This document shows positions 6,565 to 10,943 of a stretch of 27,319 nt of DNA, piece by piece. Numbering within the stretch: position 1 is the stretch's first letter; the number at the start of each line of letters is the position of its first letter. The notes under the pieces were generated by a model that was not told where the DNA came from, did not search any database, and saw nothing but the letters and a program-made list of their open reading frames with translations. Source of the stretch: Candidatus Heimdallarchaeota archaeon (GTDB lineage: Archaea > Asgardarchaeota > Heimdallarchaeia > Heimdallarchaeales > Kariarchaeaceae); assembly GCA_015523565.1 (NCBI GenBank), contig WAKA01000015.1, positions 1 to 27,319 on the forward strand. Direction: 5' to 3'. The position numbers and the translations under genes were made by a program.

Positions 6565-7002
6565 ATGACAACCAACCGAAGAAAGGACAGGGTTGCGACA
6601 ACTTTCTGGTTCGACAAAAAACTCAAGGAACGCCTTCAGCAGACAGCTTCAAGCATGGGATCCACATTGACTGATCTAATCAACAGGGCTGTTGAAATCT
6701 ATTTGGACAGGGGATATGTTCATGACGATGAAATGTCACAAAAAATGGCAATATCTGAAATAACCAGTGAACTTCATTCATCCACCCAATTTACGGACAA
6801 AATCAATGAACTTGACGACAAAATTCGGGGATTAAGCGCTAGAGTTCAGGCCCTTGAAGAAGAACGGCAAAAGGAGGAAAGAATCACTCCTGAAACAGTA
6901 CAGAACCAAATCAGCATTCACTTTGAATCAAAAGTTCAGCCACTTTTGGGAAGATTGAGCCAATTAATACAACGACTGGGTGAACAAGAGCAGAACAAAT
7001 AA
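6565..7002 (+). CDS. Ribbon-helix-helix (CopG-like) DNA-binding protein with C-terminal coiled coil
   Basis: RVATTFWFDKKLKERLQQTASSMGSTLTDLINRAVEIYL fits the RHH strand-helix-helix pattern. The heptad region is DKINELDDKIRGLSARVQALEEE. Confidence 0.75.
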   Translation: MTTNRRKDRVATTFWFDKKLKERLQQTASSMGSTLTDLINRAVEIYLDRGYVHDDEMSQKMAISEITSELHSSTQFTDKINELDDKIRGLSARVQALEEERQKEERITPETVQNQISIHFESKVQPLLGRLSQLIQRLGEQEQNK

Positions 7003-7979: not shown

Positions 7980-8078
7980 GACTGCACCTGAATGGAAGTA
8001 ATAATAAGAAACTTTTTGCAAAGTGTCTGTAGAATTGTGAAAAGAAATACATAGAATGTTTTGAACAATGACAAAACA

Positions 8079-9440
8079 ATGACTGTCTATTATTTTTCTT
8101 ATGGGGTGAACATGTCGCAAAAAATGATCGAGGCACGAAATTTGAACTTTAAGCTGATTGGGAAAGGGAAACTGGAAGACTATGCAATTACCTTCCATCG
8201 ATATTCCGCTGAATGGAATGGACTGACAGCCACATTGGAAAGGAAAGACGGTCATCACACATGGGGTGTGATCTTCGAAACTGATGAGGAAAGTATGGAT
8301 AGGCTGGATATGTTTGAAGGGCTTGAAAAAGAAGAAACAGAACGTATTAGCCTCCCCGTGTTAACAACAAAGAATGAAACGGTCATATGTGAAACTTACA
8401 TTCGTAAACATGGAACACTCCCTGATGTAGGCAATTTTTCTCTCAATTACTTAAACCTACTTCTCGAAAGCTACAAAGAGCATCACATCCCGATTGAACA
8501 ATTTGACCTGATCGAATCCAAACTGAAAAGGACATTTGTTGTAGATCGAACAAAGAGGAGAAAACGAACATTCACCCGTGGCAAATACCTGATCCAAATT
8601 GATGGGGAAAGTCTCAATGAAATTGGTTTTGATGATGGCGAGGATGTTGTTGTCGCATATCGAACAAATTATGCGCCTGCCCGTATCCAAAAAGTAGATA
8701 CGGGAATTGTCGAACCTGGCATCTGTAGGCTTGACAAGTCAATACGAAATGTCTTGGGACTTGATGAGAAAACCCTGCAACGTGCAACAGTGACAATCTA
8801 TCCCATTAAATCCCAATATATCTCTGATTATACAACTGGGGAGAAAGTGCTGAAATGGGTCCTGGCACTATTGTCATTGATCTTTTTCGCATGGATACCC
8901 TACCTGTATATCAAAAAGTCGATTTACCCACGGACATTTCTGCTGAAAGTACAAAAACTTGAATCTGACATTATCGAGAAAAACATAGCTATCGTTCCAA
9001 AACAATACCTAAAATTGATTGGCATTGAGGAAGGAAAATTCATAGACATCATTGTGCCTATTTATGTTGACGATTCGTTTTTGCTGAAATATCTAACTAT
9101 CAGGGCATTCAGTGACGAAAACATTGAGGCTTCTCCTGAATTGAAATCGCAAAAAATTTATCTTGACGAAACTACACGATCCCTTATTGGACTCCCTGAA
9201 CTGTTGACTAATGAAACGTTTCCTTTTTCACAGATCTCACCAAACCTCAATTCTCTGCTTACTGAACGGGGAATAATTTACCTTGCAACCATCCTCTTCC
9301 TTGTAGGCAGATTCCAAACACTGCTTCTCAACTTCGGAAGCTCCAACTCTATTCTTGATTTTTGGATTGCTGTCGTCTTTTCCATCTGGTTTATTGGATT
9401 TGTTGTATATTTTGAGTTGAAAAACAAGATAAGATATTGA
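8079..9440 (+). CDS. Gamma-glutamylcyclotransferase (GGCT/AIG2-like) domain fused to two double-psi beta-barrel-like domains and TM helices
   Basis: YFSYGVNM, TWGVIFE and LDMFEG (catalytic Glu position) mark GGCT. Two CDC48_N-like segments follow, with hydrophobic helices at about aa 263-284, 404-423 and 433-451 (numbered from 8061). Start is ATG 8079 or TTG 8061. Confidence 0.8.
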   Translation: MTVYYFSYGVNMSQKMIEARNLNFKLIGKGKLEDYAITFHRYSAEWNGLTATLERKDGHHTWGVIFETDEESMDRLDMFEGLEKEETERISLPVLTTKNETVICETYIRKHGTLPDVGNFSLNYLNLLLESYKEHHIPIEQFDLIESKLKRTFVVDRTKRRKRTFTRGKYLIQIDGESLNEIGFDDGEDVVVAYRTNYAPARIQKVDTGIVEPGICRLDKSIRNVLGLDEKTLQRATVTIYPIKSQYISDYTTGEKVLKWVLALLSLIFFAWIPYLYIKKSIYPRTFLLKVQKLESDIIEKNIAIVPKQYLKLIGIEEGKFIDIIVPIYVDDSFLLKYLTIRAFSDENIEASPELKSQKIYLDETTRSLIGLPELLTNETFPFSQISPNLNSLLTERGIIYLATILFLVGRFQTLLLNFGSSNSILDFWIAVVFSIWFIGFVVYFELKNKIRY

Positions 9441-10462: not shown

Positions 10463-10864
10463 CTATTTGTCCTTCAATCCCAATGATGTGGTTGCTGTAG
10501 GTCCTATTGTCAGGGGTAAAATGAAAAAGAATTGGTTTGCAAGTTGTTCACCGTTTAAAGTAATTGATCCCTGATCTATCAGGACAGCCACAACAAACCC
10601 GATCATTGCCCCAACATTGCATGAAATCCATGCAACCAAGAACTTGATGGACAAAAAGCCAAAAGGTTTCTCTTCAGTGCGTGAGGCTCCAAACCATGTT
10701 CCTACACAGATCAAAAACCAAAACAATGCATTCAGTAGCGATTGAATCTGCGCAGGTGTCAATCCTCCCAGTTTCGAAATATTCAAGCTCTGGAAAATCA
10801 ATGCAGACAAAACAGTGCCCAAAGCCGCAGTCACCATTGTTATGACATAGAGAATAAAACTCAT
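10463..10864 (-). CDS. Hypothetical 4-TM membrane protein
   Basis: Four hydrophobic segments. The probable start is ATG 10864 (MSFILY); the ORF track extends to TTG 10906. Confidence 0.72.
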   Translation of the reverse strand: MSFILYVITMVTAALGTVLSALIFQSLNISKLGGLTPAQIQSLLNALFWFLICVGTWFGASRTEEKPFGFLSIKFLVAWISCNVGAMIGFVVAVLIDQGSITLNGEQLANQFFFILPLTIGPTATTSLGLKDK

Positions 10865-10943
10865 ACTTCTACCTTTCAACAGTGCAAATAAACCTTTTTG
10901 GGGCAAAAGAACAGATTTCGCATTTTCTGAGAAAATATCAGTG

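Follow-up and report, generated by a model that had tools for sequence, protein, structure and literature searches.

A putative membrane-anchored gamma-glutamyl cyclotransferase-fold protein with two Cdc48-N-type double-psi beta-barrels in a Heimdall archaeon

Outside the AAA+ unfoldases, in which they form the platform for substrates and adaptors, Cdc48-N-type double-psi beta-barrels are hardly known. In a stretch of 27,319 nucleotides from Candidatus Heimdallarchaeota archaeon (contig WAKA01000015.1 of assembly GCA_015523565.1, positions 1 to 27,319; the whole stretch is called the window here), a gene on the forward strand at 8079..9440 codes for a protein of 453 residues, in which two barrels of this type come without any ATPase, carry a predicted membrane anchor and are coupled with an enzyme domain of the gamma-glutamyl cyclotransferase (GGCT) type, predicted to cleave small molecules or isopeptides. 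The question raised by this locus is what such barrels do in the company of such an enzyme. The explanation favoured in this paper, tentatively and at a little short of an even chance, is that the gene encodes a membrane-tethered breaker of gamma-glutamyl amides, in which the barrels would hold a peptide or protein substrate.

The list of open reading frames and the translation placed the start codon, an ATG, at 8079 and the stop codon at 9438-9440. An alternative TTG start at 8061 would extend the protein by six residues and is unsupported, since the orthologues start at the equivalent of the ATG at 8079. These orthologues, with lengths of 445-463 residues, have been identified in three other genomes of the same genus or metagenomes. 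The protein (P0001) consists of a GGCT/AIG2 domain, a first barrel, a hydrophobic kinked helix, a second barrel and a two-helix hairpin. An AlphaFold2 model of the complete protein, built with 27 aligned homologues, reached a predicted local distance difference test score (pLDDT) of 91.9 and a predicted template modelling score (pTM) of 0.88, while an earlier run with three sequences was unusable (pLDDT 47). A prediction of the full-length homodimer scored 0.00, which is evidence neither for nor against a dimer. A real and conserved gene is thus present, with the parts that were listed in the earlier note, which had been made from the letters of the window and their translations. The C-terminal module is conserved at least as strongly as the enzyme domain, with 66% compared to 62% overall.

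The GGCT/AIG2-type domain comprises residues 1-150 (8079..8528, forward strand) and was identified by Pfam, phmmer, structural alignment with VIA-align and a table of family motifs. On residues 5-139, both AIG2_2 (PF13772; 36.9 bits, cut-off 27) and GGACT (PF06094; 33 bits, cut-off 22.8) were matched above their cut-offs. The closest solved protein by sequence was human GGCT (2pn7, phmmer E 3e-10), and Glu80 of the LDMFEG motif aligned with the catalytic glutamate of the human enzyme, which is a glutamine in the 3cry mutant, so that the intact GGCT domain of the earlier note was borne out. On the structural level, the domain superposed on 2i5t with a VIA-align Z of 20.3 and a root mean square deviation (rmsd) of 2.0 over 148 of 169 residues, and on Bacillus subtilis YkqA (2qik) with a Z of 19.1. 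GGCT also ranked first in the Foldseek list (3cry, E 1.6e-12, TM-score 0.74). Active members of the GGCT fold have been defined by the YGSL-type motif and the catalytic glutamate in their cavity (10.1101/2025.01.15.633182). In the 453-residue protein, the corresponding YGxN motif is formed by Tyr8-Gly9-Val10-Asn11, and the family motif table showed that Tyr-Gly and the catalytic glutamate are retained in 12 of the 14 members that bear a GGCT domain; in the remaining two, the GGCT domain is either degenerate (P0015) or has lost both the Tyr-Gly motif and the glutamate (P0025).

The two segments that follow were predicted in the earlier note to be similar to each other and to form double-psi barrels like those of the CDC48/p97/VAT N-domain. 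The first barrel comprises residues ~152-247 (8532..8819, forward strand; AlphaFold2 model, VIA-align, hhalign), and the second comprises residues ~284-388 (8928..9242, forward strand; VIA-align, Foldseek, hhalign, invariant columns). When the profiles of both segments were aligned, a probability of 95% with an E value of 3e-8 was obtained, and their likeness is more than chance. For comparison with Cdc48, an alignment of 24 Asgard Cdc48 N-domains from the same genome and its relatives was used. Against this alignment, hhalign gave 85% (E 6e-6, 70 of about 85 columns) for barrel 1 and 61% (E 8e-5, 74 of about 85 columns) for barrel 2. In addition, weak sequence matches to the designed double-psi barrels 7dww and 7dvc fell exactly on both segments. 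Pfam CDC48_N (PF02359) matched in two stretches, which together with 20.3 bits (E 6.5e-4) stayed below the cut-off of 35.1; the barrels are called Cdc48-N-type here by fold and profile and are not members of the curated family, since they lie below this cut-off.

The structural comparisons agreed with the profiles. With VIA-align, which was run independently of Foldseek, barrel 1 matched the p97 N-domain 6hd3 (Z 8.7, rmsd 1.8 over 86 residues), the CDC48A N-domain 9uw1 (Z 8.5) and the designed barrel 7dww (Z 8.6), and barrel 2 matched the designed barrel 7dvc (Z 8.8, rmsd 1.9, 86 of 87 residues) and the VAT barrel 7dbo (Z 7.9). In Foldseek, the matches listed after GGCT were p97 N-domains and isolated double-psi barrels of VCP-like ATPases, such as 7dg7 (TM-score 0.77, rmsd 2.7, 22% identity) and 7dg9 (TM-score 0.79), together with designed barrels (TM-scores 0.80-0.82). 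Thus, for each segment, the check by structure search and profile that the earlier note had proposed returned Cdc48 N or double-psi barrel matches, and it was confirmed on the confident predicted model that each segment forms a complete double-psi barrel with both psi halves. A reading of the segments as swapped hairpins of the AbrB/SpoVT type was rejected, since a single segment makes up a complete barrel and matches 86/87 residues of monomeric double-psi barrels. A match to MazE_antitoxin was seen in one relative only, with an E value of 0.046.

Across the family alignment, several charged residues and glycines of the barrels are kept. In barrel 2, Glu300-Lys301, Gly315, Gly319, Asp363 and Arg367 are invariant and Arg285 and Arg342 near-invariant, and Arg223 in barrel 1 and Arg397 in front of the hairpin also belong to the invariant or near-invariant positions. 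Barrel 1 has in addition a family-specific Cys216 in a CRLD motif, which is present in all core members, while the deepest members have an isoleucine as in Cdc48.

The membrane segments that had been described, one hydrophobic helix between the barrels and two more behind them, were found again in the AlphaFold2 model and in the hydropathy profile. The helix between the barrels (residues 253-281; 8835..8921, forward strand) is kinked, with a helix at 253-268, a break at Trp-Ile-Pro and a second helix at 272-281, and its 19-residue Kyte-Doolittle peak is 2.06. It is confined to the clade of the Heimdall gene and two members lacking the GGCT domain, P0006 and P0007, being present in P0003, P0005 and P0007 and weak in P0006, while most members of the family are without it. 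The middle helix is thus an insertion specific to this clade. The C-terminal hairpin (9246..9431, forward strand) is formed by helices at residues 390-418 and 424-451, with hydropathy peaks of 1.94 and 2.37, and is present in every complete member of the family. It is flanked by the near-invariant Arg397 and by the basic tail ELKNKIRY, and the loop between its helices is uncharged. These flanking charges and the uncharged loop fit an in-out-in arrangement with the soluble domains in the cytoplasm. In most of the family, a short linker joins the barrels, which must therefore face the same side of the membrane.

No AAA ATPase domain was found in the protein, either by Pfam or in the AlphaFold2 model, as had been stated in the earlier note, and the beta-clam subdomain (CDC48_2) and the D1/D2 rings of AAA+ proteins were likewise not found in it. 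Three canonical Cdc48 genes are encoded elsewhere in the same genome. The earlier note did not recognise the architecture, and among the names of Pfam and NCBIfam families and in literature searches no characterised family or paper was found with a GGCT domain, two barrels and a hairpin. One homologue is named simply 'gamma-glutamylcyclotransferase' by NCBI.

For the distribution of the family, word-based homologue searches were dominated by GGCT words and hence of little use. An exhaustive profile search with residues 150-453 against 1.84 billion proteins identified 22 representatives, and a search with the C-terminal module was also productive. The common plan consists of the GGCT domain, barrel 1, a short linker, barrel 2 and the two-helix hairpin, in 410-460 residues. 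The family is very rare and occurs in Asgard archaea and bacteria, so that it is not a eukaryote-like signature protein: it was identified in 7/400 Asgard and 1/401 Anaerolineae genomes and in additional metagenome singletons of 419-453 residues. Every genome of the genus of the Heimdall gene carries a member, while none was found in any of the 8 genomes searched from further genera of its taxonomic family. Collections of plasmid and phage records yielded no copy. The two members without GGCT domain, each of 310 residues, group with the clade of the Heimdall gene with a support of 95/95.

The strongest argument that the enzyme domain and the barrels with their hairpin belong together came from the deepest relatives. 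In a protein of 658 residues (G287, locus L059) and in one of 632 residues (P0021), the barrels and hairpin are fused to a GGCT-like domain of another, divergent lineage. This domain aligned with the GGCT domain of the family with a hhalign probability of 88.6% (E 2.7e-6), and the YG and glutamate positions were matched. In the genome G028 (locus L060), a gene at 715-1776 codes for a protein of 353 residues with three CDC48_N matches, at 70.4 bits above the cut-off of 35.1, and a C-terminal two-helix hairpin; 18 bp later, it is followed by a gene at 1794-2696 for a GGCT-like protein of 300 residues. This cassette was identified in 1/25 genomes of its genus. The fusion with two GGCT lineages and the adjacency as separate genes argue for a functional association, and to judge from these arrangements the GGCT fold and the module of barrels and hairpin are evidently coupled in evolution.

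A possible partner was identified in bacterial relatives. RimK-family enzymes are glutamate ligases, and GGCT-fold enzymes cleave off gamma-glutamyl groups. Directly upstream of four family members and on the same strand, an ATP-grasp gene is present (L010 with P0018, L048 with P0014, L061 with P0015 and L062 with P0025), with gaps of 5-80 bp. For all four ATP-grasp proteins the best NCBIfam match was rimK_fam (E 4e-17 to 4e-12), which stayed below the trusted cut-off, and the four form two homologous pairs, with identities of 27% (E 2e-32) and 46% (E 5e-77). This adjacency suggests a make-and-break gamma-glutamyl system at the membrane. It also lends indirect support to the peptide-tag-removing enzyme that the earlier note had put forward as a possibility, next to a ligand-gated transmembrane effector.

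On this basis, the favoured reading may be described as follows. The hairpin would anchor the protein in the membrane, with the soluble domains on the cytoplasmic face, and the barrels would serve as non-catalytic binding modules for a peptide, a protein or a membrane-associated ligand. The bond attacked by the GGCT domain would join an amine to the gamma-carboxyl of a glutamate with a free alpha-amine, and the products would be 5-oxoproline and the liberated amine. In the four bacterial relatives, the upstream RimK-family ATP-grasp ligase would be the 'maker' in a make-and-break pair of the BtrJ/BtrG type. The copy in the Heimdall genome stands alone and is fixed in a single genus of this group; it carries the extra helix between the barrels, which is taken as membrane-embedded.

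Several observations weigh against this reading. The ligase gene was present in only 4 of about 18 informative contexts, and nine extra metagenome loci have no ATP-grasp partner. At the Heimdall gene itself, which is flanked by housekeeping genes, there is no ATP-grasp neighbour, and a search of the 90%-complete Heimdall genome gave no homologue of the operonic ligase; this genome has a canonical RimK-family gene elsewhere. Products of RimK-family enzymes typically contain alpha-linked glutamyl bonds, which a cyclotransferase cannot cleave; an exception is LysX, which makes a gamma-linked bond. The existence of members without the GGCT domain or with a degenerate one (P0006 and P0007; P0015 and P0025) argues that the module of barrels and hairpin has a role of its own. 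Finally, the middle helix has the hydropathy of a genuine transmembrane segment and is more basic at its C-terminal side; if it did cross the membrane, the GGCT domain and barrel 1 would, by the positive-inside rule, lie across the membrane from barrel 2. A location of the GGCT domain and barrel 1 outside the cell is unlikely, since the N-terminal region of 250 residues has no signal peptide. It is rather probable, and favoured here, that the middle helix is re-entrant or packed against the helix bundle, so that the facing of the barrels would not be changed.

A bolder version of the favoured reading can be formulated, which is considered distinctly unlikely as a whole. The family might be the eraser of a new reversible glutamyl-tagging system at the prokaryotic membrane, in which the RimK-type ligase would attach a gamma-linked glutamate to amines of peptides, proteins or lipids, the barrels would recognise the bearer of the tag as Cdc48 N-domains do with adaptors, and the cyclotransferase would remove the tag as 5-oxoproline. 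The lineage-fixed Heimdall copy would then act on an endogenous membrane-associated target.

Among the rival explanations, an effector of a conflict system survives best and is still unlikely. Here, the two barrels and the hairpin would form a trigger-gated module that perturbs membranes: the barrels would respond to a peptide that is foreign or modified, and the hairpin would oligomerise and damage the membrane. The GGCT domain would be a second effector or would detect a gamma-glutamyl signal produced by the ATP-grasp enzyme, and the Heimdall copy would be domesticated or resident. The very sporadic spread over bacteria and archaea, seen in the counts given above for the protein collection, the Asgard and Anaerolineae genomes and the G028 cassette, is in line with this proposal, as are the strong conservation of the hairpin and tail and the occurrence of the module of barrels and hairpin without GGCT. 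In addition, many genes next to the bacterial members resemble those of conflict systems or mobile elements, namely the Cap2-like ThiF, Prok-JAB and HTH-Peptidase_M78 genes of L061 described below and, at other loci, RloB with AAA_21, PemK and PIN-HicB pairs, nSTAND1-WD40, Imm5_like, an integrase with an ECF sigma factor, and DUF4062. The sporadic distribution and these neighbours keep a defence or effector role in contention, with the neighbourhood association being an impression with no statistics behind it. However, PADLOC-DB 2.0, which covers described systems only, gave no match for the 453-residue protein, three relatives, the G028 barrel protein and three of the ligase partners. The missing plasmid and phage copies and the stable housekeeping neighbourhood in the genus of the Heimdall gene also speak against an effector, and the catalytic residues of the GGCT domain, kept in most members, fit an enzyme rather than a mere sensor. 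In PHROGs, only the GGCT part was matched, and in a viral fold library only GGCT-only proteins were matched.

Two side observations were made in these bacterial contexts. On L061 (588-5716), just upstream of the pair of ATP-grasp gene and family member, conflict-type genes code for a protein of 577 residues with a C-terminal ThiF/E1 domain in a Cap2-like layout, a Prok-JAB protein and an HTH-Peptidase_M78 protein; together, these genes may mark where a CBASS-like or ubiquitin-like conflict locus ends. On two Anaerolineae-like contigs, the family gene is followed downstream by a convergent gene (L008 6875-7501 and L073 1698-2306) for a HEAT-repeat protein of the PBS-lyase type.

Very unlikely is a second proposal, by which the protein would be a membrane scaffold or receptor. 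Its GGCT domain would be a pseudo-enzyme that binds a gamma-glutamyl compound or 5-oxoproline without turnover, and the barrels would recruit partners to the membrane as the Cdc48 N-domain recruits adaptors. In all solved complexes that were matched, barrels of the Cdc48 N-type are indeed binding modules, and two family members (P0015 and P0025) lack the motif or the glutamate. Moreover, GGCT-fold domains without activity have been described, like part 2 of crTP and YtfP (10.1101/2025.01.15.633182). However, the 453-residue protein is one of 12 members in which both Tyr-Gly and the catalytic glutamate are kept, and its GGCT domain lies above the Pfam cut-offs and superposes closely on the active human enzyme, as described above. 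The least probable proposal, also very unlikely, is that the protein is the housekeeping GGCT of the organism's gamma-glutamyl cycle, whose position at the membrane would let it take over gamma-glutamyl amino acids made by gamma-glutamyl transpeptidase after their uptake. In favour of it, the protein is the only PF06094 match found in its genome, a gamma-glutamyl transpeptidase is encoded in the same genome, and the housekeeping neighbours are in stable synteny. Against it, the genome is only 90% complete and its sister genomes carry an extra stand-alone GGACT-type gene of 122-139 residues, the family was absent from the searched genomes of the neighbouring genera, a PxpA-type 5-oxoprolinase subunit was not found in the same 90%-complete genome, and the two conserved barrels and the forms without GGCT would be left unexplained.

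The neighbourhood of the Heimdall gene consists of a divergently oriented URO-D-like gene and genes for a 3-hydroxyacyl-CoA dehydrogenase, a small membrane protein, NDK, RNase HII and an alcohol dehydrogenase, and this gene order is kept in a relative with a 61%-identical protein. No operon partner was suggested by the genes around 8079-9440. Two proteins encoded in the window had no Pfam match, one of 145 residues at 6565-7002 (forward strand) and a membrane protein of 147 residues at 10463-10906 (reverse strand); a counterpart of the latter keeps its place in the syntenic locus of the relative. The genome of this relative (GCA_003696825.1, L001) is labelled 'Methanobacteriota archaeon' by NCBI. 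The label looks outdated or wrong, since the Heimdall genome groups with a 'Candidatus Heimdallarchaeota archaeon' genome at the order level.

Further observations concern single members of the family. In genome G003 of the same genus, a 310-residue member without GGCT is located between a gene for a DtxR-like metal-dependent repressor and one for a P-type ATPase, following a metal-type ABC permease (L006 964-3890), a context unlike that of the gene at 8079..9440. In three metagenome contigs of the same study (L074 3234-4528, and also L075 and L076), the family gene is frameshifted after residue ~145, with open reading frames of 145 and 233 residues in different frames, which may be a pseudogene or a shared assembly error. 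For G018, whose homologue belongs to Heimdallarchaeota, an apparent split into open reading frames of 170 and 270 residues was rejected as a split gene, since a scaffold gap of 10 N is located between the GGCT and barrel parts (L009 4013-4022).

With the membrane-tethered gamma-glutamyl-amide breaker as the preferred explanation, the system is of interest in two respects. The three separate couplings, by fusion with two GGCT lineages and by gene adjacency, offer a clean natural case for what Cdc48-N-type barrels bind alone, and, given the link to the RimK-family ligases, two genes would suffice to test the idea that gamma-glutamyl groups are added and removed in a make-and-break modification.

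In comparison to known systems, the enzyme part is closest to human GGCT (C7orf24; 2i5t, 2pn7, 2rbh and 3cry) and to YkqA (2qik), with which residues 1-150 share the fold and the layout of the active site. In contrast to the 453-residue protein, both are soluble and have neither barrels nor membrane segments, and the third residue of the motif is a serine in these proteins and a valine in the Heimdall protein.

With the Cdc48/p97/VAT N-domain barrels (6hd3, 9uw1, 7dg7, 7dg9 and 7dbo), both barrels share the full double-psi topology, and both halves align, including the hydrophobic-Arg-hydrophobic-Asp and LG-x-x-GD type loops. The Heimdall protein differs by the tandem arrangement and the membrane anchor, by being without the beta-clam and the AAA ATPase, and by residues specific for the family, namely Cys216 (barrel 1) and Glu300-Lys301 (barrel 2).

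The same logic of a GGCT fold, Cdc48-N barrels and a C-terminal hairpin is found in the G028 cassette, in the G287 protein of L059 and in P0021, the deepest relatives of the family. However, these forms use the divergent GGCT-like lineage, their barrels are nearer to canonical CDC48_N, and in G028 two genes are involved. Like the Heimdall family, they are uncharacterised.

For the pairing of ligase and cyclotransferase, the closest parallel is BtrJ/BtrG of butirosin biosynthesis, in which BtrJ is reportedly the ATP-grasp half. As in the four bacterial relatives, an ATP-grasp ligase is combined with a GGCT-fold enzyme. BtrG was described to remove a protective gamma-glutamyl group by cyclotransfer (10.1101/2025.01.15.633182). 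It is soluble and located within an aminoglycoside cluster, whereas the family presented here has barrels and a membrane hairpin; its bacterial partners are of the RimK family with no evident biosynthetic cluster, and the Heimdall gene stands without a ligase neighbour.

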